Source: Actinomycetota bacterium (GTDB lineage Bacteria; Actinomycetota; AC-67). From it: a stretch of 64,000 nucleotides of DNA. The translations under genes were made by a program, and so were the position numbers. This document shows, one piece after another, positions 2,031-27,029 of the stretch; positions within the stretch are counted from its first letter, which is position 1; every line of letters begins with the position of its first letter. Location: positions 788 to 64,787 of the forward strand of contig DASWJS010000021.1 in assembly GCA_036397035.1 (NCBI GenBank), read 5' to 3'. The notes beneath the pieces are model-generated. The model saw only the letters and a list, made by a program, of their open reading frames with translations. It did not search any database and was not told the DNA's origin.

Positions 2031-2192
2031 CAGGATCTCGGGTTTGCGCACTGCTCGCTCCTTCGCAGCTCGCCGGCGTCCGCGCGGGCCGGCACGGGCC
2101 ATCCTACGTGACCTGAGCAGCACGTTCATCCGGGTTCTTGACGGTTCTGAGACCTGGATCGTCTGAGTTCGCCACCACGCCCGCACCAGGCG

Positions 2193-2789: not shown

Positions 2790-2854
2790 CTAACACCCTC
2801 CAGTCGGGCGAACGTTGTTCAGGGCAGTGTTCTGCGACGGATCTATGCGGGCGC

Positions 2855-3451: not shown

Positions 3452-3833
3452 TGCGACCCCCCGACCTTGGGCGCGCGCCTAGCGCTACATCTATTCGTGG
3501 AATGGAATCCTATGATATCAGTAATATCTCTCAGATGAGGTGCTGATCCCGAGTGCGTGTTCCTTCTAGTGAACCAGGCAGCAACAGCGCCGCGGACAGG
3601 TCGCTCGTCCTGCCCGCCAGCCTGAAAGTACCCTCCCTCGCAGGTGTCCTGACTATTGACGGGGAACATCTGCTTCACGCAGACACAGGCCTTGCGCGAG
3701 CACGGCTGGTGCACCTGGAGTTGGGCGCAAGACTACTTGCACGGAGGATCATGAACATCGGCAGGCTCTTCCGCAAAAGGCCGTGCCGGGATCTGTCCCG
3801 GGCCGTCGCCCGCGCGGGCGCGGGGAGGCGAGC
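3452..3833. promoter_or_regulatory. Divergent intergenic region with an AT-rich island (about 3485-3550)
   Basis: A 380-bp gap lies between divergently oriented genes. The local sequence catctattcgtggaatggaatcctatgatatcagtaatatctctcagatgagg is very AT-rich against a background above 70% GC. It is a likely promoter or regulator-binding region for both flanking secreted-protein genes. Confidence 0.4.
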
Positions 3834-5305
3834 GTGAGGAGGGCCGGCGCGCTCGTTCTGGGCGCCTCGCTGTGCACCGGGTTGTTCGCCGTCCCGGCGG
3901 CGGGCGCCGACTGCACGAGTTTGCCGCGCAAGCCCGACCGGCCCGAGGTCGAGGTCGCGCGCGCGAAGCTGCGCGGCGCCTCGTCCGTTCGCCTCCTGCC
4001 CGGGAAGGACAAACGCGTCCATTACAGGCTGAGGCTTCCCGCGTCGCCCACGCCGCTGGACATCTTCTTCCTGCTGGACACCACCGGAAGCATGGATGCG
4101 GCGATCTGCAGCGTGAAGCTCGCGCTCTACGACATCGCCTTCGGCCTGGAGAAGACGGGCATCGACGTGAACTTCGGCCTCGGGTGGTACCGGGACTACC
4201 CGATCGCGCCCTACGGCGACCCGGGCGACACGGCATACAAGCTCGAGCACAAGATCGGCCCGCTGGACGAGGCGATGATCGAGACGCTGCACGGGCTCGA
4301 CGCGGGAGGAGGGTTCGACGGACCCGAGTCCGCCCTCCCGGCGCTGTACCAGGCCGCGACGGGCGAGGGGCAGGACGTCGCGCCGCCCGGGTCCTCGCCG
4401 GCCGACATCCCGGACGGCGGGGAAGCCGGCTTCCGCGAGGGCGGCCTGCGGGTCATCGTGAACGTGACGGACGCCCCCTTCAACAAGGGACGGGCCTACC
4501 CCGGTCCGGCCTGGGCCGACGTGGTCGAGGCGCTCCGCGGGAACGACGTCTACCAGGTGGGCATCGCGGTGGGCAACCGCAACCAAGACCTCGAGCGGAT
4601 GGCGTTCGACACCGACGCGGTCGCGCCGAAGGGCGGGCTCGACTGCGACGGGGACGGCTCGGCCGACCTCGACAAGGGACTCCCGCTCGTCTGCTCGATG
4701 GGTGGCGGCTCGGTCAACCTGGCCCCGACGATCGTGAGCATGGTCAAGGCGATCGAGGACATCGCGTCGGTGAAGTTCCGAGCGGCCGGGGCGGCTGAGG
4801 TCGTCGCCGCCGTAAAGCCGCCTGTCGTGCCCGACCTCGACATCACTCGTCCGCACCGGGCGGCCGTCCGCGTCCGCTATCACTGCGACAAGCCGAACGG
4901 CGAGCACATGGTCGAGCTGGTCGCCAGCGTCCGCGGGATCGAGGTCGCCCGCACACGGACCACGGTCACCTGCGACGCGCCGCCGGCCGTGCTTCCGATC
5001 GTGCAGGCGGCCGGGATCGCGGCCGCGCCGGCGCCCGCGCCGCAGCCGGCCCCGCAGACCAACCCGCAGGTGCAGCCACAGCCCGGCGCGCAGCCGGCCG
5101 GCGCGCTGGCGGGCGCGCCCGCCCAGGCGCCCAACCTGGCGACGGCGTCCTCCTCGGACACCGGCGACGAGACCTTGCAGATGAGCAGAGCACGCGCCAC
5201 CCCACCGCTCGCGTGGATGGTCATCGTCCTTGCGATGTCGGCCGGAGCAGCATCCATGTTGTCAACAGCGAAGCGGCCGCAGCAGGCCACCGCACGGAGG
5301 GATCG

Positions 5306-12062: not shown

Positions 12063-12662
12063 TCAGGTCGTGCTCGCCGCTCGGTCGCCCGCGCGGGCGA
12101 TCTCGCGGATGATCTCGTCGGCCGTCGCGATGCGAATGCCGACGGCGCGAAGGTCGGCGAGGTTCGCGATGCGCGTGTCCTCGCTGCTCGTCGCCAGCCC
12201 GTCCTCGACCGCGATCACGTCGTAGTCCAGCGAGATCGCGTCGAACATCGTCGCGCGCGGGCTGTTGGGCAGCGATACCCCCATCACGGCGAGCCGCTCG
12301 ACGCGCGCGCGTCGCAGCAGGAAGTCCAACTCCGTTCCCATGAAGGCGCTGAAGCGGCGCTTGACTACGATCGGCTCGCCGTCGGCGGGCTCGAGCCGCT
12401 CGACGATCATGCGGCCCCACGTGTTCTCCAGCAGGAAGCCGCGGCCCGCCTGGAAGGCCGGGACCCGGAAGCGCTCGACGTCCCAGCCGTCCTCCCGGTG
12501 CGAGCGGACCGCGTGGACGACCGGCGCGCGGGCCTCCCGGAAGGCGTCCAGGACCGACCCCATGGTGCCGGCGCGGCCGGCCGCGTCGCGGATGAACAGG
12601 CGCCCGTCCGGGTGCGCGATGTCGTTCTGCATGTCGACGATGACCAGCGCCGTCGTGCTCAT
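12063..12662 (-). CDS. Isochorismatase-family cysteine hydrolase
   Basis: [20 protein letters not shown]..., catalytic Cys region [31 protein letters not shown]. It sits 16 nt upstream of ilvB on the same strand, so it is probably the first gene of the ilvBNC operon. Confidence 0.8.
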
Positions 12663-12728
12663 CGATTCCTCCCTGGTCCCTTCCTTCTGTGCCCCTGAAA
12701 CGAAAAACCCCCCGCGGAGCGAGAGGTC

Positions 12729-12755
12729 AGCGCGCGCTCGAACCGAGCGCGCGCT
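12729..12755 (-). promoter_or_regulatory. Perfect 11-bp GC-rich hairpin in the 5' leader of the isochorismatase-ilvBNC operon
   Basis: The + strand reads agcgcgcgctc-gaacc-gagcgcgcgct: an 11-bp perfect stem with a 5-nt loop. On the transcribed (minus) strand a GGGGGG-TTTTT tract follows about 20 nt later, roughly 45 nt before the isochorismatase ATG. Candidate attenuator or leader structure. No obvious Ile/Val/Leu-rich leader peptide was found. Confidence 0.35.
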
Positions 12756-12981
12756 AGGCGACTACGAGGCTGGAGCAGATCGAACCCCACATCGTGGGTC
12801 AGAGTATTCCAGCAGGCCATCCCCCATGTCAACGCGCCCGGAGGAGGCGCCCGAACCCCCGGCCGGCTCGCAGCCGGACGACGGCAAGAACCGGACGGGG
12901 CAAACCGCACGACAGGGCAGCTACACGCGTTGCCGCGTCTTCGCGAATGGGCGATGATGAGGCGACGTTCCACCACGGGAG

Positions 12982-15288
12982 TTGACATTGGGCCGAGCCT
13001 TCCGGCGATCCACGGGCGCCGCCGTCGCGATCCTTGTGCTGGTCCTGACGTTTCCGAGCCTCGCCCTGGCGCAAGCCTCGCCGGTGAAGCTGGAGGTCAC
13101 GGCCGGCTACAACGGGTTCCTGCGGGGGTGGGCCTCCAACCCGTTCGAGATCGCCGTCGAGGCCGACTCCCTGTTCGCGGGCAAGATCAACCTGACGTTC
13201 GATCCTCCCAACCAGAGCGCCTACACGATCCCGATCGAGGTCCCCGGCGGCAGCCGCAAGGTCGTGCGCATCGTCGTGCCGAGGGCGAGCGTCCGCGAAG
13301 TCACCGCGACGGACCAGAAGGGACGGGTGATCGCGCGTGAGCGCGTGCAGGCCGCGACGCTGTCCTCGGGCGAGGACCTCGTCGGCGTGCTGAGCCCCGA
13401 CCCGGTCACGCTCGCGCAGGTACCGGTCCCGATCGTAGACCGCGACGCCCGCGTGGTAGAGCTGACGCGCGAGACGCTCGCGCTCGGCGCGCCCGCGCTG
13501 CGTCCGCTCAGTCACCTCGTCGTCGACGGCTCGATCGTTGCGCGGCTGACCGGCGACGAGGTCCAGGCGATCCGCGCGTTCGCAATCGACGGCGGCGAGC
13601 TGATCCTCGCCGCGGGCTCGCCCGACCAGCTCGCGCTGGTCCCCGGCGGGTGGGCGCCGAGGGGCTCGGACGCGGTCGCGCAGCGCAGGGTCGGCACGGG
13701 GGTGCTCACCGTGGCGGCCCTGCCTTTCAGCGATGCGGCCTGGTCGGAGAACGGCTCGATGTGGCCGCAGGTCATGCGCCCGTCGGAGTCGACGCGCTGG
13801 CACGACGGCGCCGAGCCGGGGTGGACGGACGTATGGCTCAACGGGGTCGGCGCGCAAGAGCAGCGGCGCCTGCGATGGATGGGGTTCTTCGTCCTCGGTT
13901 ACGCGCTCCTTGCCGGACCGGTCACGTTCGGCGTGCTGACCGCGACGAAGAAGCGGCCGCGCGCATGGGTGGTGATCCCGAGCCTCGCCCTCGTCGTCGC
14001 GGTCGTCATCGTCGTCGCCGCGGGCGCACGGGGCAACGCGGACGAGCGCGTAGTGAGCGGGTACGTCGAGTGGTATCCCGAAGGCACGCGACAGCACCTC
14101 GCGGTCGGCCTGGTCGCGCCGGGCAGCGGGCTGGCGACCTTCCGGCTGCCGGGCGACGGCGTCGTCGAGCCGAGCATCGACTACAGCGCGGCGACCCGCG
14201 CCACGCGCGAGGTCACGCCCGGCCCGAGCTCGACCTCGGTCACGTTGCCGCTGTCCAGCGGACAGGCAGGCGTCGTGCGCTACCGGAACGCCGCCGCGAC
14301 CGGTGGGGTCAATCCGGCGGGGACGCTCAAGCCCGGCAAGGGGATCGTGGGGATGGGCACCTTCTTCGGCGGCAAGATCCCGACCGCGCCGGTCCTGAAA
14401 GGAACGATCACGAACCCGACGCCCTACACGCTGCGCAACGTCACCGTCGTCGCCGGGCACACCGGCGCGGCCGCGGCCGAGGCGCTTGGGCCCGGCAGCA
14501 GCCGCCGCGTGGCGCTGACCTACGGCGGCCCGAACGCGCCGGCCAGTCCGAGCGGGTACCCCGGGTACAACGGCTTCGCCTTCGGCCCCGGTGGCTACTA
14601 CGACCCGAGCGGCGCCATCGCCGGCGTGGTCGCGAGCCACGTCGGCATCGGCCGCCACGGCGACGCGTACCTGACGGGCTGGGTCGACGCGGCGGAGGCG
14701 ACCGGCCTCGTGCCCCTCGGCGCCTCGGAAGGCGAGATCCTCGTGGTCATCCCGCTCGACGTCGACCTGAGCTCGGCGCACGACGTTCCGAGCGACACGG
14801 TTCGCGGGCGGTTCGTCGGCTTCGACGGGACGGTCCTGGACCCGGACCCCTTCGGCTCCGGCAGCTTCGATTCGATCCGCTCGAACGGCACGTCCATCAT
14901 CCGCTACCGGCTTCCCCCCGACTCGAGCCCCGCCAACCTGTACGTGCAGCGCGCAGGCCGAAGCGGCAGGTTCCCGAGTGTCCCCGCGCAGCCGCTGGTG
15001 CGCCGCAGCGGCGGCTCGTTCACGATCGTGGGGCGCGGCTTCCCCGGCTCCAGCTTCGGTCCCGGCTACACGTTCCAAGGGTTCGGGGCGGGGACGGCCA
15101 AGCGTCCCAACGTCGAGTTCTACGACTTCACGACGGGCGCGTGGGTGTCCGGGTCGGTGCAGCAATCGTCGGTCGTCCGCGTCGCTGCCGCGGGCCTGAT
15201 CAACGACCTCGGCGAGGTCTACGTTCGCCTGAGCGGCAGCTCGCCCTACAACCTGACGTCAGACTCGGTGGAGCTGTCCGCGGCATGA
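12982..15288 (+). CDS. Large exported membrane protein (768 aa), first gene of the ABC/MoxR/vWA operon
   Basis: Signal peptide (AAVAILVLVLTFPSLALAQA). Two adjacent TM helices sit mid-protein (WMGFFVLGYALLAGPVTFGV and AWVVIPSLALVVAVVIVVAAGA), followed by a Gly/Pro-rich extracytoplasmic C-terminal half. The start is TTG at 12982, or TTG at 12988, which lies 7 nt after GGGAG. The stop overlaps the ATPase ATG (ATGA). No family recognised. Confidence 0.6.
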   Translation: MTLGRAFRRSTGAAVAILVLVLTFPSLALAQASPVKLEVTAGYNGFLRGWASNPFEIAVEADSLFAGKINLTFDPPNQSAYTIPIEVPGGSRKVVRIVVPRASVREVTATDQKGRVIARERVQAATLSSGEDLVGVLSPDPVTLAQVPVPIVDRDARVVELTRETLALGAPALRPLSHLVVDGSIVARLTGDEVQAIRAFAIDGGELILAAGSPDQLALVPGGWAPRGSDAVAQRRVGTGVLTVAALPFSDAAWSENGSMWPQVMRPSESTRWHDGAEPGWTDVWLNGVGAQEQRRLRWMGFFVLGYALLAGPVTFGVLTATKKRPRAWVVIPSLALVVAVVIVVAAGARGNADERVVSGYVEWYPEGTRQHLAVGLVAPGSGLATFRLPGDGVVEPSIDYSAATRATREVTPGPSSTSVTLPLSSGQAGVVRYRNAAATGGVNPAGTLKPGKGIVGMGTFFGGKIPTAPVLKGTITNPTPYTLRNVTVVAGHTGAAAAEALGPGSSRRVALTYGGPNAPASPSGYPGYNGFAFGPGGYYDPSGAIAGVVASHVGIGRHGDAYLTGWVDAAEATGLVPLGASEGEILVVIPLDVDLSSAHDVPSDTVRGRFVGFDGTVLDPDPFGSGSFDSIRSNGTSIIRYRLPPDSSPANLYVQRAGRSGRFPSVPAQPLVRRSGGSFTIVGRGFPGSSFGPGYTFQGFGAGTAKRPNVEFYDFTTGAWVSGSVQQSSVVRVAAAGLINDLGEVYVRLSGSSPYNLTSDSVELSAA

Positions 15289-16280
15289 CGGACGTGCAGG
15301 CAACGACGACCGGCGTGCTGCCGGCGCCCGACCGCGAGCCGGTCGTGCACACGTCCGCGCTCACGAAGTACTTCGGCACGACGGCGGCCGTGCGCGACCT
15401 GACCTTCGAGGTCGAGCACGGATCGATCACCGGCGTCGTCGGGCCGAACGGCGCCGGGAAGAGCACGACGTTCCTGATGCTCTCGACGCTGCTCTCCCCG
15501 ACCGAAGGCGAGATGGCGGTCTGCGGCTTCGACCCCATCGCCGAATCCTCCGAGGTGCGCCGGCACGTCGGCTACGTTCCCGACTTCTTCGGGATCTACG
15601 ACGACCTGACGGTGACCGAGTACCTGCACTTCTTCGCCGCGACGTACGGCATTCGCGGCCACCGGCGCGAGGTGCTCGCCAGCGAGCTGCTCGAGCTGGT
15701 GGACCTCGGCGTCAAGGCCGACTCGCCGGTGAACTCCCTCAGTCGCGGCATGAAGCAGCGCTTGTGCCTGGCGCGGGCGCTCGTACACGACCCGCAGCTC
15801 CTCATCCTGGACGAGCCGGCCTCGGGCCTCGACCCGCGCGCGCGCATCGAGCTGCGCGCGCTGCTGCGAGAGCTGCAGCGAATGGGCAAGTCGATCCTGA
15901 TCTCGAGCCACATCCTCACGGAGTTGGAGGAGGTGTGCTCGCACGTCGCGATCCTGGAGGCGGGGCAGCTCGTCACCTACGGGTCGCCCGCGGACCTGCG
16001 CGGCGCGTACTCGGGCCTGCGCCGGTTCCGCATCCGCGTCATGGCGGGCAGGAAGCCGATGGTGCTGGCGCTGCTCGAGCAGCGCGAGGACGTCACCGTC
16101 GTGGACGACACGGCATGGGGCGACGAGGTCGTCGAGGTCGAGATGAGCGGCGAGGACGACATGGTCGCGGCGCTGCTCGCCTTCATCGTCGCCAACGGCA
16201 TCGCGCTGGTGGAGTTCACCGAGCTGCGCGCCGGCATAGAGGACATCTTCCTTCGCGCCACGAAAGGAACCGTGTCGTGA
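15285..16280 (+). CDS. ABC transporter ATP-binding protein
   Basis: Walker A GPNGAGKST, ABC signature LSRGMKQRL, Walker B LLILDEPASGLD, H-loop SSHIL. ATGA overlap with the upstream gene and GTGA overlap with the downstream permease. Confidence 0.9.
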   Translation: MTDVQATTTGVLPAPDREPVVHTSALTKYFGTTAAVRDLTFEVEHGSITGVVGPNGAGKSTTFLMLSTLLSPTEGEMAVCGFDPIAESSEVRRHVGYVPDFFGIYDDLTVTEYLHFFAATYGIRGHRREVLASELLELVDLGVKADSPVNSLSRGMKQRLCLARALVHDPQLLILDEPASGLDPRARIELRALLRELQRMGKSILISSHILTELEEVCSHVAILEAGQLVTYGSPADLRGAYSGLRRFRIRVMAGRKPMVLALLEQREDVTVVDDTAWGDEVVEVEMSGEDDMVAALLAFIVANGIALVEFTELRAGIEDIFLRATKGTVS

Positions 16281-17245
16281 TCTCGAACCCGATCTTCGAG
16301 CGCGAGCTGAAGGAGCGCGCCCGCACCGTCCGGATGCCGGTCGTGCTGTCGATCTTCCTGCTGCTGTTCGGGTGCGCGGTCTGGATCATCGTCGCCTCGC
16401 TCACCAGCGACGCCGGGCGGGTGTTCGGCGCGACCCTGACGGGCCGGAACCTCTTCCACTGGATCCTGTTCTTCCTGCTGCTGTTCGTGTCGTTCATCAC
16501 CGCGCCGTACGCCTCGGGAATGATCGCCGGCGAGCGCGAGCGCCAGACGCTCCACCTGGTGCAGATGAGCGGCATGACGCCACGCCAGATCGTCACCGGC
16601 AAGATCATGGCCTCGCTGGCTTGGGTGACGCTGCTCGTCGTCGCGACGCTGCCCTTCGCCGCGATCAGCGTCATCCTCGGCGGCGTGACCTGGACCGAGA
16701 TGGTCGTCGGCTACGCGATGGTGCTGTTCTGCGCGGCCACGTTCTCCACGCTCTGCATCGGCCTGTCGTCGCGCATGAAGCGCTCGAGCGGCGCGGCGGT
16801 GCTGAGCATCATGCTCGTCTTGGTCTTCTGGGTGGGCACCTGGGCGGTCTTCGGCCTTGCCGTGTGGGCGCAGGACGACTTCTCGCCGCAGGTCCGGCCG
16901 ACGTGGGCGCTGACGCTCAACCCGCTCGTCGGCACCGCGTCGGCGATCCAGGGCCGCGACCAGGGCGGCACGGACGAGCCCAACGTCATGCGCGCGCTGT
17001 TCTTCTTCGTGCACACCTCGAAGGACCCGTCACTGGGCTTCCCCTTCGCGCTTCCCGGTCAGGGCGCCAACCCGCCCGCACCCGGTACGCGCACGGTGCC
17101 CTTCTGGGTGTGGACGGCCGGCTGGTACCTGCTGCTCGACCTCCTCGCCTTCCGATGGGCCGTCGTCGGCGTGACGACGCCGCGCGCGACCTTCGTCGCC
17201 GGCGGCCGGCGGCGGCGGCGCGGGCAGTTGGAGGAGGCGTCGTGA
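16277..17245 (+). CDS. ABC-2 family transporter permease (6 TM)
   Basis: Starts VISNPIFERELKERARTVRMPVVLSIFLLLFG from GTG 16277, overlapping the ATPase stop. Multiple hydrophobic helices typical of ABC-2 / GldF-like permeases. Confidence 0.8.
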   Translation: MISNPIFERELKERARTVRMPVVLSIFLLLFGCAVWIIVASLTSDAGRVFGATLTGRNLFHWILFFLLLFVSFITAPYASGMIAGERERQTLHLVQMSGMTPRQIVTGKIMASLAWVTLLVVATLPFAAISVILGGVTWTEMVVGYAMVLFCAATFSTLCIGLSSRMKRSSGAAVLSIMLVLVFWVGTWAVFGLAVWAQDDFSPQVRPTWALTLNPLVGTASAIQGRDQGGTDEPNVMRALFFFVHTSKDPSLGFPFALPGQGANPPAPGTRTVPFWVWTAGWYLLLDLLAFRWAVVGVTTPRATFVAGGRRRRRGQLEEAS

Positions 17246-18969
17246 CGCTCTTCGGCGACTTGCTCGCCGGCGTGGCCAGGCGCATGAAGGTCGCCTGGCT
17301 GATCGACCGCATCGCGACCGTCGCGGTCGCGGCCGCGGCCGCGCTCCTGGCGGTCTTGCTCGCCGGCAGGTGGGTGCCGCTGGGGATCGGCGAGTACGTC
17401 GCGTGGGCGCTTGCGGGCCTGGCCCTTGCCGCGGTGGCGGCGCGCGCGCCGCGGTTGCGAGTGACGCCCTTGGCCGCCGCGCGCGCCGCGGATCGGGGGT
17501 TCGCCGGGCGCGACCAGATGGCGACCGCGATCGAGCTGTCCGCCGGCGAGCCGGACGGTGAAGTCGCGCCGCTCCAGATCGACCGCGCGATTCGCTTCGC
17601 AAGCGGCCGCCGCGCGAAGGACGCCGTCGTCTATGCGCTCCCCGAGCGCAGGGCGGGCCTCGCGGCGCTGCTGATCGTGCTGGCCGTGCTCGTCTCGGTG
17701 CTGCCGAACCCCGCCGACGCGACCGTGCGGCTGCGGCGGGCGGAAGCCGCGGCGGTCGCCGAGCAGCAGGATCTGGCCGAGCGCCTGGCGGAGGAGGCTG
17801 CCGCGAAGGCCGCGACGCCCGAGCAGGAGGCGCTCGCCGAACGGCTCGCGAAGGTCGCCGAGGAGCTGGACAAGGTCTCCTCGGTCGACGAGGCGCAGAA
17901 GGCGATCGACGAAGCCGAGTCCGAGCTGCTCGACCAGCTCGACCCGGATGCGCTGTCGAAGCGAGCGGCCGTCGCCGGACTCGAGCGAACGCTGGCCCAG
18001 GACCCGCTCCCCGGCTCGAACCAGGGCGACCCCGCCGCCGAGCAACTGGAGGCGCTCGCCGAAGCCGCGCCGTCGCTGACCGAAGGCGAGCGCCGGGAGG
18101 CGGCCGAGCGGCTCGAGGCGCTCGCGCGCGGCGCCGAGTCGACCAATCCCGAGCTTGCCGAGGCCCTGCGCGAGGCGGCGGCGAACCTGCGCGCGGGCCG
18201 GGACGCATCCGGCGCGCTGTCCCGCGCGGCCGCGCTCCAGCGCGAGGCGGTCTCGGCGGCCGTGAACCAGGACCGCGTCGCGACCTCGCTCGCCACCCTG
18301 GGCGAGATGCGCGACGCGCTCGAGCGCGCGCAGGCGCAAGCGCAGGCGGAGGCCGCGGGCGAGAGCGGCACCCAGAGCCAGAGCGGCCAGGGCGAGGGCG
18401 AGCAGCCGGGCGGTCAGCCGGGCGCCGAAGGCGAGGCGGGGCAGCAAGGCCAGACCGGGAGCGAAGGCGAGCAACCGGGCGTGGGCCAGGGCGAGGGCGA
18501 GGGCGAGCAGCCCGGCCTGGGCGGCCAGGGAACCCAGCCGGGCCAGGGATCGCAGCCGGGCGGGCAGCCGGGCCAGGGATCGCAGCCCGGCCCCGGCGAC
18601 GCGGGCTCGACCGACGGGGGCGTCGCCGACATCCCGGACGACTCCCAGAGCGGGCAGGGAAGCACGAGCTGGGGCTACAACGCGGGCGATCAGATCCGCT
18701 CGGGCGGGGTCTACGACCCGCAGTCCTTCGCGGCGACCGGCGAGCGGAGCTACGTTTCGGGAATCCTCGGTGAAGGCGACGAGGAGCTGCTCCCCGGCGA
18801 GCGGCTCGGCGACGGCGACCGGGGCCAGGTGCTCGTCCCCTACCAGCAGGTGCTGCCCGCCTACCGCAGCGCCTTCGTGCGCGCGGTGCAGACGCAGGCG
18901 ATCCCCGTGACTCTGCGGTCGCTCGTGCGCGACTACTTCGCCGCGCTCGTGCGGGGAGGCTCGCCGTGA
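17242..18969 (+). CDS. Membrane protein with an Ala/Glu-rich coiled-coil region and a Gly/Gln/Pro-repeat region
   Basis: The GTG at 17242 overlaps the permease stop (GTGA). Three predicted TM helices at the N-terminus. A long stretch rich in EAL/AEAL heptad-like repeats. Then GQGEGEQPG / GQPGQGSQPG low-complexity repeats, then a conserved C-terminal domain (VLVPYQQVLPAYRSAFVRAVQTQAIPVTLRSLVRDYF). Confidence 0.6.
   Translation: MTLFGDLLAGVARRMKVAWLIDRIATVAVAAAAALLAVLLAGRWVPLGIGEYVAWALAGLALAAVAARAPRLRVTPLAAARAADRGFAGRDQMATAIELSAGEPDGEVAPLQIDRAIRFASGRRAKDAVVYALPERRAGLAALLIVLAVLVSVLPNPADATVRLRRAEAAAVAEQQDLAERLAEEAAAKAATPEQEALAERLAKVAEELDKVSSVDEAQKAIDEAESELLDQLDPDALSKRAAVAGLERTLAQDPLPGSNQGDPAAEQLEALAEAAPSLTEGERREAAERLEALARGAESTNPELAEALREAAANLRAGRDASGALSRAAALQREAVSAAVNQDRVATSLATLGEMRDALERAQAQAQAEAAGESGTQSQSGQGEGEQPGGQPGAEGEAGQQGQTGSEGEQPGVGQGEGEGEQPGLGGQGTQPGQGSQPGGQPGQGSQPGPGDAGSTDGGVADIPDDSQSGQGSTSWGYNAGDQIRSGGVYDPQSFAATGERSYVSGILGEGDEELLPGERLGDGDRGQVLVPYQQVLPAYRSAFVRAVQTQAIPVTLRSLVRDYFAALVRGGSP
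18361..18600 (+). repeat. Low-complexity coding repeats (GQGEGEQPG / GQPGQGSQPG) inside the 17242..18969 gene
   Basis: Repeated ggccagggcgagggcgagcagccgggc / gggcagccgggccagggatcgcagccg units are visible in the nucleotide sequence. Confidence 0.6.
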
Positions 18970-19952
18970 AGCCCGATCGCTGCAACGAGCTTGCGACCGC
19001 CCTCACCGAGCAGATCGGCAAGGTGATCGTCGGGCAGCGCGAGCTGGTCCGCGAGGTCCTGATCTGCCTGCTGGCCGAGGGACACGCGCTGATCGAGGGC
19101 GTGCCGGGCCTCGGCAAGACGATGCTGCTTCGCACGCTCGGCGAGGCGCTGACGATGGAGTTCTCGCGCGTGCAGTTCACGCCGGACTTGATGCCGGCCG
19201 ACATCGTCGGCACGAAGGTGCTGAAGGAGGAGCGCTCCGGGCGCACGTTCGCCTTCGAGCGCGGGCCGGTGTTCGCCAACCTGGTCCTGGCCGACGAGGT
19301 GAACCGCGCGACGCCCAAGACCCAGTCCGCGCTGCTGGAGGCGATGCAGGAGCGTCGCGTCACCGTCGGCGGCGAGACGCACGAGCTTCCGCGCCCGTTC
19401 TTCGTCATGGCCACGCAGAACCCCATCGAGATGGAGGGCACCTACCCGCTGCCGGAAGCGCAGCTCGACCGCTTCCTGCTCAAGGTGCTCGTGCGCTTTC
19501 CGAGGGCGGACGAGCTGGCCGAGATCGTCGACCGCACGACGGGCACGCACACGCCGCTCGTCGACCGGGTGATCGATCGCGAGCAGCTCACCGACATGAT
19601 CGCCACCGCTCGCGCGGTCCCGATCGCCTCGCACTTGGTCGAATACGCGGTCTCGGTCGTCACGGCGACCCATCCCGAGCACGACGCCGCGCCGGAGACG
19701 ACGAAGCGCTACGTGAAGTTCGGCTCCTCCCCCCGCGGCGCGCAGGCGATGGTGCTCGCGGCGAAGGTGGCCGCGCTGCTCGACGGGCGCCTCAACGTCT
19801 CCGAGGAAGACCTGCGCGAGACGGCCACGCCGGCGCTTCGGCACCGCGTGATCCTGTCCTACGAGGCGATCGCCGACGGGGTCTCCCCCGACGACGTGCT
19901 CGGCGAGGTGCTCGCGCACACCGCCGTCCCGGCGATCCCCGTCGGCGGCTAG
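18966..19952 (+). CDS. MoxR-family AAA+ ATPase
   Basis: Walker A GVPGLGKT, Walker B LADEVNRA, and the MoxR-typical regions (FTPDLMPADIVG, ATQNPIEMEGTYPLPEAQLDRF). The GTG at 18966 overlaps the upstream stop. Confidence 0.9.
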   Translation: MKPDRCNELATALTEQIGKVIVGQRELVREVLICLLAEGHALIEGVPGLGKTMLLRTLGEALTMEFSRVQFTPDLMPADIVGTKVLKEERSGRTFAFERGPVFANLVLADEVNRATPKTQSALLEAMQERRVTVGGETHELPRPFFVMATQNPIEMEGTYPLPEAQLDRFLLKVLVRFPRADELAEIVDRTTGTHTPLVDRVIDREQLTDMIATARAVPIASHLVEYAVSVVTATHPEHDAAPETTKRYVKFGSSPRGAQAMVLAAKVAALLDGRLNVSEEDLRETATPALRHRVILSYEAIADGVSPDDVLGEVLAHTAVPAIPVGG

Positions 19953-19956
19953 TCCC

Positions 19957-20820
19957 GTGGCGCTGCTTGAGCCCGCCGACTTGGAGGCGCTCGAACGGCT
20001 CGCGCTCGCGACGCGCGCGCGGATGCTGGGCACGTTCGCCGGCGATCACCGGTCGCCCCGGTTCGGGTCGTCGCTGGACTTCGCCGACTACCGGGAGTAC
20101 CGGCCGGGCGACGACTTCCGCCGCATCGACGTGCCCCTGTCGGCGCGGCTCGACCGGCTGTTCCTTCGGCTGTTCGAGGCGGAGGAGGACGTCTCGATCC
20201 GGATCGTGGTGGATACGTCGGCCTCGATGGGCTTCGGCGACCCGTCCAAGGTCGCGCTGGCGCGCCGGATCGCCGCCGGCTTCGCGCACCTGTCGCTCGC
20301 GCAGGGCGACGCGGTGCGCCTCTACGAGACGGCCGGCCGTCGCCGCGCCAGCCGCTGGTACGCGGCGAAGGCGGACTCGATCGAGGCGATGCGCTGGCTC
20401 GAGGCCGCCGCGCCCGCCGGGCCCGCGCGCCTCGCCGACGTCGTGCGCGCGCTGCGGGAGGAGGGCCGGACCGGCTTGACGCTGGTGGTCTCGGACCTGC
20501 TGGAACCGGGATGGGAGGACGCGATCCGCCGGCTCGGCGCGCCCGGCGAGGCGGCGCTGGTGCACCTGCTCGCGCCGGAGGAGATGGAACCGTCGCTGGA
20601 GGGCGACCTCACGCTGCTCGACGCCGAGACCGGCGCGGAGGTCCCCGTGTCGATGACGCCCGAGGTGCTGCGCGGCTACCGGGCGCGGCTCGCCGCGTGG
20701 CTCGCGTCGGTGCGCTCGGCGTGCACCTCGCGCGGGATCGGCTACGTCCGGGCGCGATCCGACGAGGACGCGATGGACTTGTTCCGGCGCCGCTTCCGGT
20801 CCGAGGCGGTCGTGCGATGA
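19957..20820 (+). CDS. DUF58-family protein (vWA-like partner of MoxR)
   Basis: Typical DUF58 block DFADYREYRPGDDFRRIDV followed by IVVDTSASMGFG. It sits 4 nt after the MoxR stop. Confidence 0.8.
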   Translation: MALLEPADLEALERLALATRARMLGTFAGDHRSPRFGSSLDFADYREYRPGDDFRRIDVPLSARLDRLFLRLFEAEEDVSIRIVVDTSASMGFGDPSKVALARRIAAGFAHLSLAQGDAVRLYETAGRRRASRWYAAKADSIEAMRWLEAAAPAGPARLADVVRALREEGRTGLTLVVSDLLEPGWEDAIRRLGAPGEAALVHLLAPEEMEPSLEGDLTLLDAETGAEVPVSMTPEVLRGYRARLAAWLASVRSACTSRGIGYVRARSDEDAMDLFRRRFRSEAVVR

Positions 20821-22688
20821 CCTTCCTCGCGCCGGCCGCTTTCGCGCTCAGCCTGCTCGCCGGGCCGATCGTCGTGATGTACATGCTGCGGAGCCGGCGC
20901 ATGCGCACGCCGGTGTCGAGCACGCTGCTCTGGCTTCCGGGCGAGCGGAACCTCAGCGCGAGCATGCCCTGGCAGCCGCTGCGCTTCTCGCTGCTGCTGG
21001 CGCTGCAACTGCTGGCGCTGCTGTTGCTGCTGCTGGCCGTCGCGCGTCCGGCGCGCGCGACCGCGCTGCCGTTGGGCGAGCACACCGTGCTGATCCTCGA
21101 CGCGTCGGCCTCCATGCAGGCGGCCGAGCCGGACGGCCGAACGCGCATCGAGATCGCGCGGGCGAAGGCGGCCGAGGCCGTCGACCAGCTCTCCCCCGGC
21201 AAGCGCATGAGCGTCATCGCGGCCGGCCCCGAGGCCGAGGTCGTGCTGTCGGGGTCGAGCGACCGGCGCGCGCTGCTGGCGGCGATCAACGGCGTCGAGG
21301 CGACCGACGGGACCGCCGACGCGGAGGCCGCCTTCGCGCTCGGCGCGAGCCTGGAGACGGCGGACACGCCGACCGTGCTGCTGTTCTACTCCGACGGCGC
21401 GATCTCGCCCGAGGCGCGCGAGTCGGCGCCCTCGACGCTCGTGCACGTCCAGACGGGAACGCCCCTGCCGAACGTCGCGGTCGAGCGGATCGCCGTCACG
21501 CCGTCGGGCGCCGGCTGGGACGCCTTCGTGCGCGTGTCGAACGAGGGAGCCGCGGCGGTGGACGCCGCGTTGGAGTTCGTCGCCGGCGAGACGGTCGTCG
21601 CGCGGGTCCCCGTCCGGGTCGAGCCGCGAAGCGGCGTCGACCTCACCGCCGCCCTTCCCGCGATCGCGGGCGGCGCGGTCGGCGCGCGCCTGACCGGCGC
21701 GCGCGCGAGGGGCGGCGACGCGACCGTGAACGCGCTCGCCGCCGACGACCAGGCCTCGACCCTGCTCGACCGCGGCTCGGGTCTGAAGGTGCTGCTCGTG
21801 ACCAAGGGCAACGTCTTCCTCGAAGCCTTCGTCGGCAGTCTTCCCGGCGCGGAGCTGACCGTCGCCGACGAGCCGGTCCCCCCGACGGGTCAGAGCCTCG
21901 CGATCTACGACGGCATCGCGCCGCCGGCCGAGCCGGCGGTGCCCTCGATCGTGATCGCGGCGCCGGGCGGCGCGCCCGGCGTGACCGCGACGGGCAAGCT
22001 CGAGCTGCCGATCGTGACGTTCGTGCAGCCGCGCGAGCCCATCCTTGACCAGGTGGACCTGTCGGCGCTGGCGATCCGGGTGGCGCAGCAGGTGTCGGCG
22101 CCGCGCATGGACGTGCTGGCCGCGGCGGGCGACGACCCGATGCTGCTCGCCGGCGTGCCGGGCGGCACGCGCATGGCGTACGTGGCGTTCGCGCTCAGCG
22201 ACAGCAACCTTCCCGTCCAGGTGGCGTTTCCGCTGCTGTTCGGCAACCTCGTCACGTGGCTCACGCGCGGAGACGCGCCCGACCAAGCGGAGCTGGTCGC
22301 CGGCGACGAGCTGCCCTTGAGCATCCCCGGCGGCGCCACCAGCTTCACGGTGCGGGGCCCGGGCGGAACGACCACGCGTCCGGTCGACCGCGACCGATTC
22401 GAGGACACGGCGCGGGCCGGCATCTACCGGATCGCCTACGAGGGCGCGGACGGCACCCTGGGCGAGGAATCCTTCGCGCTCGGCATCCCGGCCGGCGAGA
22501 GCAACCTCGACCCGGTGACGGTCGGCGGCGGGGGCGCGGGCGGGCTCGCCTCGGACCGATCCCTGCGCGGGCTGCGCGCCTACGGGCCCGGCCTGCTGGC
22601 GCTGGTGCTCGTCGTGCTGCTGGTCGAGTGGTGGGAGGGCTACGGCCGCCCGCGCCGGATGCGCCGAGCCGCCGGAGCCGCGGCATGA
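20817..22688 (+). CDS. BatA-like membrane protein: N-terminal TM anchor plus vWA domain
   Basis: Aerotolerance-regulator-like N-terminal TM segment (FALSLLAGPIVVMYMLRSRR). vWA MIDAS motif LILDASASM. C-terminal TM helix. ATGA overlap with the DUF58 stop. Confidence 0.75.
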   Translation: MTFLAPAAFALSLLAGPIVVMYMLRSRRMRTPVSSTLLWLPGERNLSASMPWQPLRFSLLLALQLLALLLLLLAVARPARATALPLGEHTVLILDASASMQAAEPDGRTRIEIARAKAAEAVDQLSPGKRMSVIAAGPEAEVVLSGSSDRRALLAAINGVEATDGTADAEAAFALGASLETADTPTVLLFYSDGAISPEARESAPSTLVHVQTGTPLPNVAVERIAVTPSGAGWDAFVRVSNEGAAAVDAALEFVAGETVVARVPVRVEPRSGVDLTAALPAIAGGAVGARLTGARARGGDATVNALAADDQASTLLDRGSGLKVLLVTKGNVFLEAFVGSLPGAELTVADEPVPPTGQSLAIYDGIAPPAEPAVPSIVIAAPGGAPGVTATGKLELPIVTFVQPREPILDQVDLSALAIRVAQQVSAPRMDVLAAAGDDPMLLAGVPGGTRMAYVAFALSDSNLPVQVAFPLLFGNLVTWLTRGDAPDQAELVAGDELPLSIPGGATSFTVRGPGGTTTRPVDRDRFEDTARAGIYRIAYEGADGTLGEESFALGIPAGESNLDPVTVGGGGAGGLASDRSLRGLRAYGPGLLALVLVVLLVEWWEGYGRPRRMRRAAGAAA

Positions 22689-25345
22689 GCTTCGACCGTC
22701 CGCTCTGGCTGCTGGCGCTCGTGCCAGCGCTCGGCGTCACGTGGTTCGTCCACGCGATCGGGCACCTGTCGGTCGCGCGCCTGCAACGGCGGATCGCCCT
22801 CGGCGTGCGGACCGCGATCGTGGCGGCGCTGGTGCTGGCGCTCGCCGGCCTTCGGCTCGGCGCCGGCGGCGATCACGTCGCGGTCGTCTTCCTCGTGGAC
22901 CGCTCGGACTCGGTGGGCATCGCCGGCGCGAGCGTGGCCCGCGACTTCATCGCCGAGGTGCTCGCGGCCAAGCCGCGCACCGACCTCGCCGGCGTCGTGG
23001 CCTTCGGCGCCGAGCCGCGCCTGGAGTTCGGGCTGACCGACGCGCCTGCGTTCACGCAACTGACCGCGGTGCCGGCCGCGAACGCGACCGACCTGGCGCG
23101 CGCGCTGCGGCTCGCCGCGGCGCTCTTCCCGGAAGGCGCGCGCCGCCGCGTCGTCGTGCTGAGCGACGGGCGCGAGACCGACGGGGACGCGCGCCGGGAG
23201 GCCGAACGGCTCGCCGACCTCGGCATCGTCGTGGAGTCGGTGGTCCTGGACGCCTCGTCGGGGAACGACGCGCTGATCGAGGCGGTGACCGCGCCGGGCA
23301 AGGTGCGCAAGGGCGAGCGGTACCGGGTCTCGGTCACGGTGTCGGGCCCCGGCGGTCCCGCGTTCGTCGAGCTGTTCCGGGACGGGAGGCTGATCGAGTC
23401 GCTCGACCTGCTGCTGAAGCCGGGCCGCACGACGATCCCGTTCACCGAGCGCGCGACCGCGACGGGCGTGCACACCTACGAGGCGCGGCTCACGACGACC
23501 GACGACGCCGTGCCGGAGAACGACCGGGGACTCGCGGCGGTCGTCGTCGAGGGCGTCCCGCGCGTGCTGGTGATCGAAGGGAGCCGGGGCGAGGGGCGCG
23601 CGCTCGCGCGCGCGCTGCGCGCCGGACGGTTGCGGGTCGACGTCGGCAGCCCGCCGTCGCTCCCGCCGCTCACGCAGTTGCTCGGGTACCAGGCGACGGT
23701 GCTGGTGGACGTGCCCGCGCACGCGCTGTCGCCCGGCCAGGTGCGAACGCTCGGCGCCGCGGTGGTCGACGCGGGAGCGGGGCTCGTCACCGTCGGCGGC
23801 GAAAGCTCCTACGGGGTCGGGGCCTATCGCGGGAGCGAGCTGGAGAAGCTCCTGCCGGTGAACAGCGAGCTGACCGACCCGAAGCGGCGACCCTCGATCG
23901 CCGAAGCGCTCGTCGTGGACACCTCGGGAAGCATGGGCGTCGAGGGTGGCGTAAACAAGACCGACCTGTCGCGCGCGGGGCTCGCGCGGGCGATCGGGTC
24001 GCTGTCGCCGGAGGACACCATCGGCGTGCTCGCGTTCAATACGCGGTCGTCGTGGATCATCGACCTGCAGCAGTTGCCGCCGCCCGAGACGGTGCGCGCG
24101 GGCTTGCAGCGGCTCACGCCGGGGGGCGGCACCGACATCGCGCAAGCGGTGCAGCACGCCGTGCGCGATCTCGCCGAGCAGGACACGAAGCTGAAGCACA
24201 TCGTGCTGTTCACCGACGGCTTCTCCGACGACTCGCGGCTCGTCTCGATCGCCGAGCAGGCCGCCGACGAGCACCGGATCACGCTCTCGGTCGTCGCGAT
24301 CGGGCGGCAGACGGCGGGCGTGCTGCCCGGGATGGCCGAGGCCGGCAAGGGACGCTTCTACGCGATCAAGCGGCTCACCGACGTGCCCGAGGTCATCACC
24401 GAGGAAGTCCTGCGCGCGAGCCGCAACTTCATCAACGAAGGGGTCTTCCCGCCGCTGCTCGCCGAGCCGTCCGCGCTGACCGAGCTGATCGGCTCGGCGC
24501 CGGCGCTGCTCGGCTACGTCGCCACCTCGCCCAAGGAAACCGCGACCGTGGCGCTGGCGATCGGTAAGGAACAGGATCCGCTGCTGGCGTCGTGGCACGC
24601 GGGACTCGGCACGGCGGTGTCCTGGACGAGCGACGCGAAGGCGCGCTGGTCGAAGCGCTGGACCGGCTGGCGCGGGTTCCGCGACGCGTGGACGAACATC
24701 GTGCGATCGACGTTCCCCACCGGCGGCACGGCGCCCTTCGGGACGGAGGCCCGCTTCGACGGCGACCGCCTTCGCATCGCCGTGGCCGGCGAGGCGGTCC
24801 CGGGCGCCCTCGAAGCGACGGCGCGCGTGATCGATCCCGCGCTCGGCGTCGTCGACCTGCGCCTGGACCGGACGGGGCCGGCGTCGTTCAGCGCCCGCCT
24901 GCCGGCACGGGACGAAGGCTCCTACGTCGTGCTGACGTCGGTGACCGCGGGCGGCGCCGTCGTTTACCGCGACACCATCGCCGCCACCCGCTCCTACTCG
25001 ACCGAGTACCTGTCGGCGGGGCCGGACCGCGCGCTGCTCGCCGACCTCGCCGCCGCGACCGGCGGGCGCGACGAGGTCGAGCCGGCGACGGCGTTCGACC
25101 CGGCCGGCCTCACGCGCAGCGACGCGCGGACGGCGCTATGGCCGTTGCTCGCGCTGCTCGCGGCGCTGCTGTGGCCGGTGGACATCGGCCTGCGGCGGCT
25201 CGCCCTCAGCAGGCACGACGTGCGCGCGATCGTGGGGAGCCTCAGGCGGCACCGCGGCGATCATGCGCCCGCCGAGGTCGACGAGCGGGTCGAGCGCCTG
25301 CGCGCCGCGCGGGAGCGGGCGCGCCAAGACCTCGATCAGACCTGA
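22685..25345 (+). CDS. Large membrane-anchored protein with two vWA domains (BatB-like, 886 aa)
   Basis: N-terminal TM helices. First vWA motif FLVDRSDSVG, second vWA motif VVDTSGSMG, and a C-terminal TM segment (LWPLLALLAALLWPV). ATGA overlap with the upstream gene. Last gene of the eight-gene operon. Confidence 0.75.
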   Translation: MSFDRPLWLLALVPALGVTWFVHAIGHLSVARLQRRIALGVRTAIVAALVLALAGLRLGAGGDHVAVVFLVDRSDSVGIAGASVARDFIAEVLAAKPRTDLAGVVAFGAEPRLEFGLTDAPAFTQLTAVPAANATDLARALRLAAALFPEGARRRVVVLSDGRETDGDARREAERLADLGIVVESVVLDASSGNDALIEAVTAPGKVRKGERYRVSVTVSGPGGPAFVELFRDGRLIESLDLLLKPGRTTIPFTERATATGVHTYEARLTTTDDAVPENDRGLAAVVVEGVPRVLVIEGSRGEGRALARALRAGRLRVDVGSPPSLPPLTQLLGYQATVLVDVPAHALSPGQVRTLGAAVVDAGAGLVTVGGESSYGVGAYRGSELEKLLPVNSELTDPKRRPSIAEALVVDTSGSMGVEGGVNKTDLSRAGLARAIGSLSPEDTIGVLAFNTRSSWIIDLQQLPPPETVRAGLQRLTPGGGTDIAQAVQHAVRDLAEQDTKLKHIVLFTDGFSDDSRLVSIAEQAADEHRITLSVVAIGRQTAGVLPGMAEAGKGRFYAIKRLTDVPEVITEEVLRASRNFINEGVFPPLLAEPSALTELIGSAPALLGYVATSPKETATVALAIGKEQDPLLASWHAGLGTAVSWTSDAKARWSKRWTGWRGFRDAWTNIVRSTFPTGGTAPFGTEARFDGDRLRIAVAGEAVPGALEATARVIDPALGVVDLRLDRTGPASFSARLPARDEGSYVVLTSVTAGGAVVYRDTIAATRSYSTEYLSAGPDRALLADLAAATGGRDEVEPATAFDPAGLTRSDARTALWPLLALLAALLWPVDIGLRRLALSRHDVRAIVGSLRRHRGDHAPAEVDERVERLRAARERARQDLDQT

Positions 25346-25355
25346 GAGCCGCCGG

Positions 25356-27029
25356 TCAGTCGCAGACCGCGCCGCGGGCGGCGCTCGAGACGAGCTTCGC
25401 GTACTTGCCCAGGGCGCCGGACGTGTAGCGCGGCTCGGGCGGCTTCCAGCCCGCCCGCCGCTCCTCCAGCGTCGCCTCGGCGACCTCGACGTCGAGCCGC
25501 CTGTTCGGCACGTCCAGCACGATCGGGTCGCCCTCGGCGACGAGCCCGATCGGCCCGCCGTCCACCGACTCGGGCGCCGCATGGGCGACCATGAACCCGT
25601 GCGTCGCGCCGCTGAAGCGGCCGTCGGTGATCAGGCACACGTCCTTGCCGAGCCCCGCGCCGGCAACCGCGGCGGTCACGGCGAGCATCTCGCGCATCCC
25701 CGGGCCGCCGCGCGGGCCCTCGTTGCGAATCACGATCACGTCCCCGCGCTTGATGCGGCCGCCCGTGACCGCCGCGAAGGCGTCCTCCTCGCACTCGAAC
25801 ACGCGCGCCGGGCCGCGGAAGACCGTGCCCTCCATGCCGGCGATCTTCGCGACGGCGCCGTCGGGCGCCAGGCTCCCCCGGACGATGGCAAGCCCGCCGC
25901 TGGCGTGGATCGGATCGGCGAGCGGGCGCACGATGCTCGCGTCCGAGGGTGCGGCCACGCCGGCGAGGTTCTCGGCGACGCTCGCGCCGGTGACCGTGAT
26001 CGGGTCGCCGTGCAGCAAGCCGGCGTCCAGCAGCTCGCGCATCACCGCCGGGATGCCGCCGACGCGGTCCAGGTCGAGCATCACGAACCGGCCCCACGGC
26101 TTCATGTCGGCCACGATCGGGGTCCGCCGCGCGATGCGGTCGAAGTCGTCCAGCGCCAGGTCGGTCCCGGCGGTGTGGGCGATCGCAAGCAGGTGCAGCA
26201 CCGCGTTCGTCGAGCCGCCGCACGCGACGACGACGGCGATCGCGTTCTCGAACGCCTCCTTGGTCAGGACGTCGCGCGGCCGGATGCCCGCCTCCAGCAG
26301 CGCGAGCGCCGCGACCCCGCTCTGCTCGGCGAACGCGTCGCGGCGCGGATCGACGGCCGACGGGCCGCTCGACCCGGGCAGCGACAGGCCCAGCGCCTCG
26401 ATGGCCGCGGCCATCGTGTTGGCGGTGAACATCCCGCCGCACGAGCCCGCACCCGGGCACGCGTTGCGTTCCAGCTCCAGCAGCTCCTCGTCGGTCATCC
26501 CGCCCGCGGCGTGCGTGCCCACGGCCTCGAACACGTCCTGGATCGTGACGTCGTGGCCGTGGAAGGTGCCGGGCAGGATCGTGCCCCCGTAGAGGAAGAT
26601 GCTCGGGATGTTGAGCCGCGTCGCGCCCATCACCATGCCCGGCAGGGACTTGTCGCAGCCGGCGATGGTCACCAGGGCGTCGAAGCGCTCCGCGTGCGCG
26701 ACCAGCTCGACCGAGTCGGCGATCAGCTCCCGGCTCACCAGGGAGGCGCGCATCCCTTCGTGGCCCATGGAGATGCCGTCCGACACGGCGATCGTCGTGT
26801 ACTCGACCGGGACCGCGCCCGCGGCTCGCACGCCTTTCTTCGCGGCGGCCGCGAGCCGGTTCAGGTGGACGTTGCAGGGCGTGACTTCGTTCCAGGACGA
26901 CGCCACGCCGATCTGCGGCTTGCCGAAGTCCTCCTCGCTGAACCCGACCGCGCGCAGCATCGCGCGCGCCGGCGCGCGCGACGGGCCTTCGGTCACGTCG
27001 CGGCTTCGATGACGAACGTCGCCGCTCAC
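25356..27029 (-). CDS. ilvD: Dihydroxy-acid dehydratase
   Basis: Full-length IlvD/EDD family protein with the Fe-S cluster Cys motifs ([23 protein letters not shown]) and SGATHG near the C-terminus. Confidence 0.95.

Follow-up and report, generated by a model that had tools for sequence, protein, structure and literature searches.

An operon of eight genes joining an ABC-2 transporter to a MoxR-DUF58-vWA module: conserved order and a probable place at the cell envelope

Do eight adjoining genes that encode an ATP-binding cassette (ABC) transporter of the ABC-2 type and a MoxR-DUF58-vWA module belong to one system, or do two systems share a transcript? The question is raised by a stretch of 64,000 nucleotides (nt) of contig DASWJS010000021.1 (assembly GCA_036397035.1, positions 788 to 64,787, forward strand), hereafter the window, which comes from an uncultured Actinomycetota metagenome-assembled genome (MAG) and has a G+C content of about 72%. 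Eight open reading frames (ORFs), named g1 to g8 here, occupy positions 12988-25345 of the window on the plus strand, each closed by a single terminal stop. The evidence presented below points, with a probability of about 60%, to one envelope-facing system of which g1 is a subunit. Few bacterial gene clusters without a known mechanism are as widespread as the MoxR-DUF58-vWA (Bat-like) operons, and GldG-type ABC-2 systems are likewise unexplained. The occurrence of both modules in one operon across three phyla, often with fused vWA proteins, makes them plausible physical partners. The genes are as follows.

12988..15288, plus strand: g1, membrane protein of 766 amino acids (aa) (hydropathy, Pfam on relatives, AlphaFold2)
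15285..16280, plus strand: g2, ABC ATPase of the DrrA/GldA/NodI type (Pfam, NCBIfam)
16277..17245, plus strand: g3, ABC-2 permease of the NosY/GldF type, ABC2_membrane_2 (Pfam, NCBIfam)
17242..18969, plus strand: g4, membrane protein of 575 aa (hydropathy, model; no Pfam family)
18966..19952, plus strand: g5, MoxR-proper (MRP-type) AAA+ ATPase, cytoplasmic (Pfam)
19957..20820, plus strand: g6, DUF58 protein, vWA-like (Pfam)
20817..22688, plus strand: g7, BatA-N region with two transmembrane (TM) segments, and a vWA domain, VWA_2 (Pfam, hydropathy)
22685..25345, plus strand: g8, two N-terminal TM segments, two vWA domains and GATase1_like, PF07090 (Pfam, hydropathy)

Conservation of the gene order

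A profile of the permease g3 was scanned over one genome per GTDB species and returned at least 530 loci, the best 80 of which were analysed. The hosts of these 80 loci were mostly Acidimicrobiia, together with other Actinomycetota, Anaerolineae, Chloroflexia, Ardenticatenales, and several Bacillota. The eight window proteins were then compared with the loci by tblastn, and 44 loci reached at least 9.5 kb downstream of the permease. The genes g5-g6-g7-g8 were colinear downstream of the permease in 38 of these 44; three others showed g5 to g7 only, with g8 probably lying past the end of the locus. This colinearity strongly supports the single unit that a preliminary description, made from the letters of the window, had proposed.

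The full order of g1, ABC ATPase, ABC-2 permease, g4, MoxR, DUF58, and one or two vWA genes is retained in the long contigs L001-L004, L006, and L007, whose neighbourhoods are unrelated; a Clostridia MAG is among the long contigs with the conserved order. A soil contig carrying a g1 relative that is 29% identical (P0002) has the same order in a different neighbourhood: g1, ABC, ABC-2, a protein of 541 aa, MoxR, DUF58, and a fused BatA-vWA-vWA-GATase1_like protein. In 87 related loci, ilv genes were never found next to the cluster as they are in the window, which indicates that the block travels as a unit through changing neighbourhoods.

The two halves of the operon also diverge together. Among 49 complete loci, the pairwise distances of the ABC genes correlate with those of the MoxR/DUF58/vWA genes at r 0.81-0.90, similar to the correlations within modules (0.88 for g2-g3 and 0.83 for g5-g6). 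In 27 of 46 loci, g7 and g8 form one ORF. In the relatives, the 4-nt overlap is the commonest type of junction at g1/g2, g2/g3, g3/g4, and g6/g7. The reading of the eight genes as one unit is therefore upheld by an order conserved across three phyla, the co-divergence of the halves, and the frequent fusion of g7 with g8.

Some loci depart from the compact arrangement. In L007 (GCA_037025245.1, 4321-21323), the order is kept despite inserted PALP, LTD, Uma2, PDDEXK_3, and mannosyltransferase genes, which speaks for selection acting at this locus to keep the genes ordered and close, not to keep one tight transcript; a HicB gene lies immediately upstream of its g1. Two Acidimicrobiaceae MAGs (L068, 10765-15950, and L080) contain about 5 kb of extra ORFs between permease and MoxR. 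These ORFs, of 723, 586, and 388 aa and with no Pfam match, replace a recognisable g4, and g1 of this variant is 974 aa long. A Planctomycetes match to the permease (P0024) was set aside as a lone permease of double length with no MoxR nearby.

The predicted proteins and the system they may form

Pfam confirmed the domain calls that the preliminary description had made by eye for g2, g3, and g5 to g8. The ATPase g2 scores 4.8e-30 (105 bits, cut-off 25) against ABC_tran and has the motifs GPNGAGKST (Walker A), LSRGMKQR (signature), and LLILDEP (Walker B); its NCBIfam scores of 244 bits for drrA and 220 bits for GldA are both under the equivalog cut-offs. The adjacent permease g3 scores 1.2e-16 (61 bits, cut-off 27.2) against ABC2_membrane_2 and contains an invariant GERERQT motif. 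An ABC-2 transporter is thus identified by two adjacent proteins above the Pfam gathering scores with the motifs in place.

The first protein, g1, begins with a Sec-type signal peptide or anchor (about aa 12-30, ALA-Q) and has a conserved TM hairpin in the middle of the chain (about aa 301-348) with invariant G/P/W residues. An immunoglobulin-like (Ig-like) domain and a GATase1-like domain of the DUF4350/GldG type precede the hairpin, and several beta-sandwich domains, recognised as DUF7408 in relatives, follow it; all of these are extracytoplasmic by prediction. Relatives in 590 clusters (E up to 1e-3) came from an exhaustive HMMER search over 1.84 billion cluster representatives, and of the 150 listed most measure 700-860 aa; a word-based search returned few close relatives. 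Within the family, DUF4350 is matched by 10 of 43 members (best 1e-7) and DUF7408 by 15 of 43 (best 8e-13), and no match to GldG or ABC_transp_aux was found in Pfam or NCBIfam, family members included. The AlphaFold2 model, built on 79 sequences, is confident (predicted local distance difference score, pLDDT, 85; predicted template-modelling score, pTM, 0.86) and starts with a beta-sandwich, continues with an alpha/beta domain (about aa 144-243) and the TM hairpin, formed by long helices, and has several further beta-sandwiches after it. The alpha/beta domain is ThuA/DJ-1/IFT52-like at the fold level. An early guess that g1 would prove DUF4350- or GldG-like was correct at the level of family and fold, from Pfam on relatives and from fold comparison.

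The other membrane protein of this half, g4, is predicted to comprise a TM hairpin, a cytoplasmic loop of about 70 aa, a third TM segment, and an extracytoplasmic helical bundle. Its model is confidently helical to aa 376 and disordered from 379 to 531, a region rich in Gly, Gln, Glu, and Pro, and the C-terminus bears a conserved two-helix motif, VPYxxV...YF. No Pfam match was found for g4; Pfam on seven relatives and a profile run against 5.8 billion proteins gave no family save a stray PF28006 label, and fold comparison returned generic helical-bundle matches only. Hydropathy and the models agree with the TM segments and low-complexity tracts first described for g1 and g4. The GQGEGEQPG-type tract of g4 is encoded by imperfect tandem repeats of 18-36 nt at about 18390-18605. 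Relatives differ widely in the length and make-up of this tract, predicted to be disordered, which ranges from (GQ)n runs to Q/S-rich sequence.

In the second half, g5 scores 1.4e-64 (216 bits) against AAA_3 and 2e-18 (66 bits) against AAA_lid_2, with the motifs GVPGLGKT (Walker A) and LADEVN (Walker B). AAA_3 with its lid, an adjoining DUF58 gene, and vWA genes beyond it place g5 in the MoxR-proper (MRP) subfamily as defined in PMC12067865 and PMC3893208. The DUF58 protein g6 (1.8e-30, 106 bits) has the DxSxS motif DTSAS and no TM segment, and is presumed to be a cytoplasmic adaptor of MoxR. In g7, the vWA domain with its metal ion-dependent adhesion site (MIDAS) DASAS is followed by an extracytoplasmic region of about 390 aa and a C-terminal TM segment. 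The two vWA domains of g8 carry the MIDAS motifs DRSDS and DTSGS, and the protein ends in a TM segment and a charged cytoplasmic tail of about 50 aa; a sequence search of the PDB found nothing for it. Read from the sequences, all four MIDAS DxSxS motifs, those of g6, g7, and the two vWA domains of g8, are intact.

Hydropathy and the positive-inside rule place both sides of the g1 hairpin, the long C-terminal part of g4, and the vWA-bearing bodies of g7 and g8 outside the cell, and g2, g5, and g6, which have no TM segments, in the cytoplasm. The predicted topology of g7 agrees with that of the BatA-type protein BB0173 of Borrelia, whose vWA domain was found by experiment to face the periplasm (PMC5700661). 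Fused g7-g8 proteins, of about 1500-1640 aa, have five TM segments and keep all vWA domains outside. At the split in the window (22586-22860), the TM segment at the break is doubled, the third TM segment of g7 resembling the first of g8, so the vWA domains of g8 stay outside.

The reading of one envelope-facing system would combine these parts in a complex at the cytoplasmic membrane of monoderm-type ("Terrabacteria") lineages, made up of two motors driven by ATP in the cytoplasm and four membrane proteins exposing large domains to the outside; the operon would count seven or eight genes, depending on the fusion of g7 and g8. In the first module, the ATPase g2 and the NosFY/GldAF-type permease g3 would work with g1 as their extracytoplasmic accessory subunit. 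The membrane-anchored helical bundle of g4, with its disordered Gly/Gln-rich tether, would be a further external component. The ABC-2 unit may export a non-protein component of the envelope, or may pass ATP-driven movement to g1. A precedent for the latter is NosFY, which transmits ATP-driven movement to NosD.

In the second module, MoxR (g5) and the DUF58 adaptor (g6) would act in the cytoplasm to assemble or remodel the outward-facing BatA-type proteins g7 and g8. The pairing of MoxR with DUF58 as a vWA-like adaptor is supported by the known MoxR/vWA pairs RavA/ViaA, NorQ/NorD, and CbbQ/CbbO (PMC3893208). The metal sites of the vWA domains of g7 and g8 might serve to bind a ligand in the wall or at the surface. 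Judged from these comparisons, the role of the system is likely the building or maintenance of a structure of the cell surface or associated with the cell wall. A more specific proposal, put forward tentatively, is that of a hitherto unrecognised two-motor (ABC plus AAA+) envelope machine of Actinomycetota, Chloroflexota, and Bacillota, in which both motors act on the same outward vWA and GATase1-like proteins to build or remodel a surface structure, as a bacterial counterpart of an archaeal DUF4350-MoxR-vWA system. If this is true, the Bat/MoxR-DUF58-vWA modules gain a concrete physical partner and a testable function. If the link between the modules is merely regulatory, the locus is a well-conserved and ordinary operon of known parts.

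Several observations weigh against a single system. At three of the 44 loci, the permease has no MoxR half nearby. The g4/g5 junction is the loosest in relatives, with 18 short overlaps and, at 9 of about 44 loci, gaps of more than 100 nt; because of these gaps, separate transcription of the two halves is possible in some lineages. The distance correlations would also be expected from vertical co-inheritance of two unrelated neighbouring operons, and all the related loci recovered are MAGs. The topology was read with a simple hydropathy rule, and g1 itself is below the Pfam threshold for DUF4350 (17 versus 30.4 bits). No gene for a substrate, cargo, or enzyme is conserved in the cluster, and for this reason the biological role is a guess.

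The first two of these points favour the strongest competing explanation, in which g1-g4, as an ABC-2 efflux pump, and g5-g8, as a Bat-like MoxR/vWA stress module, are independent systems on a shared transcript. MoxR-DUF58-vWA operons without ABC genes are indeed widespread (Bacteroides bat, Borrelia bb0170-176, Rhizobium RL3499-3502). Two unrelated systems, however, would have to remain colinear across three phyla despite full turnover of the flanking genes, even where unrelated genes are interspersed as in L007, and would have to diverge from each other in step as closely as genes of one module do. An archaeal precedent, moreover, ties a GldG-like protein directly to MoxR-vWA. Independence of the two halves is accordingly considered unlikely, though it keeps some weight.

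The preliminary description had instead cast g1 as the surface cargo of the operon, exported or assembled by the ABC-2 exporter with the assistance of MoxR/vWA. The place of g1 as first gene, its mostly extracytoplasmic mass, and its wealth of beta-sandwich, adhesin-like domains would suit such a cargo. Against it, g1 has its own signal sequence and a TM hairpin, as expected of an integral membrane protein that is probably inserted by Sec/YidC. Its size and architecture are uniform among the listed members of the 590 clusters, whereas cargo adhesins usually vary, and its GATase1-like/DUF4350 domain is of the kind found in ABC-2 accessory proteins. The known substrates of ABC-2 (type V) exporters are glycans, lipids, and small molecules; these exporters are not known to move proteins of 80 kDa. 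A cargo role for g1 is therefore improbable and that part of the description was given up; the same features, namely the signal peptide, the hairpin, the uniform family, and the accessory-type domain, fit an accessory subunit of the ABC-2 transporter.

Maturation of a metal cofactor for an extracytoplasmic metalloenzyme, by analogy with NosDFY, NorQ/NorD, CoxD/E, and the MoxR of methanol dehydrogenase, appears very unlikely as well. It would account for NosY as the only PDB relative found with the g3 profile, for the label "multi-copper enzyme maturation permease" given to g3 relatives at JGI, and for the four intact MIDAS sites, and MoxR proteins are known to take part in metal-centre insertion (PMC3893208). 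The NosY match, however, has an E value of just 0.13, the name used at JGI is a generic one taken from COG, and genes for a metalloenzyme, a NosD-like beta-helix, or a metallochaperone are absent from the cluster and from its conserved surroundings. A role in phage defence or biological conflict, of the MoxR-vWA ternary kind, is hardly credible: MoxR-vWA pairs do serve in conflict systems (PMC7159879) and g5 has a secondary Pfam match to bpMoxR (8.5e-15, 54.8 bits), but its AAA_3 score is far higher, the DUF58 and BatA context is that of the housekeeping MRP type, none of the eight proteins has a beta-propeller, kinase, FHA, or effector domain, PADLOC gave generic ABC-ATPase matches only, and gene content and order are kept in full over three phyla, unlike those of patchy defence islands.

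Junctions and flanking genes

The eight-gene layout and the junction positions were found as first described: six start/stop overlaps of 4 nt and one gap of 4 nt, placed as follows.

15285 (g1/g2), 20817 (g6/g7), 22685 (g7/g8), plus strand: ATGA overlaps
16277 (g2/g3), 17242 (g3/g4), 18966 (g4/g5), plus strand: GTGA overlaps
19952 to 19957, plus strand: 4-nt gap between the TAG end of g5 (19952) and the GTG start of g6 (19957)

The starts agree with the NCBI annotation, that of g1 having been moved to 12988. Exact proteins exist there for g2 (HEX9775371) and g5-g8 (HEX9775374-377), g3 and g4 match the database proteins P0004 (322 aa) and P0211 (575 aa), and g1 has the locus tag VGB83_07310. 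TTG at 12988, giving 766 aa, is the more likely start of g1 than 12982, because it is the call of NCBI and has GGGAG 6 nt upstream. Shine-Dalgarno-like GGAG or GGAGG sequences stand 5-13 nt ahead of most starts.

In a rough gene call based on G+C at third codon positions, the window contained about five other 4-nt overlaps among some 20 same-strand junctions, ilvC/ilvN and ilvD/DUF3352 included. Six overlaps in seven junctions would have a chance of about 1e-3 under independence, an enrichment, and are the ordinary mark of a compact operon, not an anomaly. The "strict co-translation" of the eight products first proposed was overstated: overlaps of this kind allow translational coupling but do not prove it.

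Upstream of g1 lies a divergent intergenic region of 325 bp:

12663-12987, no strand assigned: divergent intergenic region

The promoter of the operon must reside in this region; a promoter scan found no sigma-70-like match on the plus strand upstream of g1. Within the operon, a scan for terminators and promoters gave a single weak terminator-like match, inside g3. Over the whole window, the Rfam scan found no family and the tRNA scan no tRNA.

To the left, on the minus strand, are ilvC, ilvN, ilvB, and then a gene of the isochorismatase family (12063-12662). To the right, the operon meets ilvD:

25356-27029, minus strand: ilvD, convergent with g8

The stops of g8 and ilvD are 10 nt apart (25345-25356), and the terminator scan detected no terminator-like structure for either gene. 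In the preliminary description, the operon was an insertion that parts ilvBNC from ilvD. It gave the flanks correctly, apart from omitting the isochorismatase gene, but an insertion event is not demonstrable: a search for a mobile-element or insertion signature found no meaningful flanking direct or inverted repeats, and there is only a slight rise in G+C, from 0.68-0.72 in the flanks to 0.71-0.75 over the operon. Compared with the related loci, the location between ilv genes is idiosyncratic to this sequence.

The ilv side of the intergenic region has features of its own. A sigma-70-like promoter match (TTGACA-18-AATACT, 10/12) precedes the isochorismatase-ilvBNC genes on the minus strand; behind it come a GC-rich hairpin with perfect pairing, GCGCGCGCTCG-gtt-CGAGCGCGCGC, at about 12755-12727, and then a terminator-like hairpin with a T-run at 12728-12706. 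These elements, all within 12706-12832, together make up a structured leader of about 100 nt, a candidate attenuator; it has no Rfam match and no obvious Ile/Val/Leu leader peptide. Elsewhere in the window, G+C falls to 0.63 at 2001-4000 and 0.66 at 50001-52000, against about 0.71 in the remainder, and these two segments gave no tRNA or Rfam match.

Comparison with known systems

The modules of this operon are familiar, while their fixed association, the families of g1 and g4, and the range of phyla in which it occurs are apparently undescribed. Full-text literature searches returned no account of a combined ABC-2, MoxR, DUF58, and vWA cluster, an absence that is no proof in itself and that agrees with the preliminary description, in which the arrangement was called undescribed. 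Two reports that were considered, on the epibiont-defence Esr pathway and on an Anaerolineaceae MoxR, concern other MoxR systems.

The second half, g5-g8, resembles the MRP-type MoxR-DUF58-BatA/BatB operons, such as batA-E of Bacteroides fragilis, bb0170-bb0176 of Borrelia, bat of Leptospira, and RL3499-RL3502 of Rhizobium leguminosarum, in its AAA_3 MoxR, DUF58 protein, BatA double TM, and outward vWA domains with MIDAS. Mutants of RL3499 have defects of envelope and morphology (PMC3893208), consistent with an envelope role for g5-g8. Unlike the proteins of Bat operons, g8 combines two vWA domains with GATase1_like and is usually fused to g7, and the MoxR module is fixed here to an ABC-2 transporter, g1, and g4, an association that was not found described for Bat-type operons. 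Identity with the batA-E operon itself was rejected, as no TPR, SH3, or BatD-type domain (BatC/BatD/BatE) is present in the eight proteins.

The first half shares with GldA/GldF/GldG and NosF/NosY(/NosD) the plan of an ABC ATPase, an ABC2_membrane_2 permease, and a large extracytoplasmic accessory protein. GldA and GldF are among the top NCBIfam names for g2 and g3, and the domain type of g1 is that of GldG/IFT52. The GldAFG system of gliding in Bacteroidota is nevertheless excluded for g1-g4, since the GldA (TIGR03522, 220.5 versus 402.6) and GldF (TIGR03518, 33.7 versus 288.5) scores are under the cut-offs and there is no GldG. The hosts here are not Bacteroidota, and the accessory gene g1 stands ahead of the ABC genes instead of after them. 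NosDFY copper maturation was likewise rejected, from the E value of 0.13 for NosY and the lack of a NosD-like domain in the eight proteins.

The nearest published system is archaeal. A GldG-like DUF4350 protein (arCOG01314) was predicted to form, with MoxR and vWA proteins, a secretion or membrane-remodelling complex (Makarova, Galperin, Koonin 2015, PMC5898192), and DUF4350 was related in the same work to GldG and to the beta-galactosidase trimerisation domain (PMC5898192), a relationship to which the fold of the g1 domain corresponds. The archaeal system differs in that neither an ABC ATPase nor a permease belongs to it. The proteins it is partnered with are Ig-like and S-layer-like, where this operon has BatA-type proteins and no S-layer/Ig partner of the arCOG02884 type was seen. 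The archaeal DUF4350 protein has a single C-terminal TM segment, whereas g1 has a hairpin in mid-chain and then about 420 more external residues. In both systems, genes for a COG0714 MoxR and for vWA proteins accompany that of a GATase1/flavodoxin-like protein anchored in the membrane and facing outwards, which is DUF4350 in archaea and, by family and fold, probably of DUF4350 type in g1; nearly all components are membrane-bound or external. The operon would in this way tie modules known from bacteria to the DUF4350-MoxR-vWA complex that was predicted for archaea in 2015.

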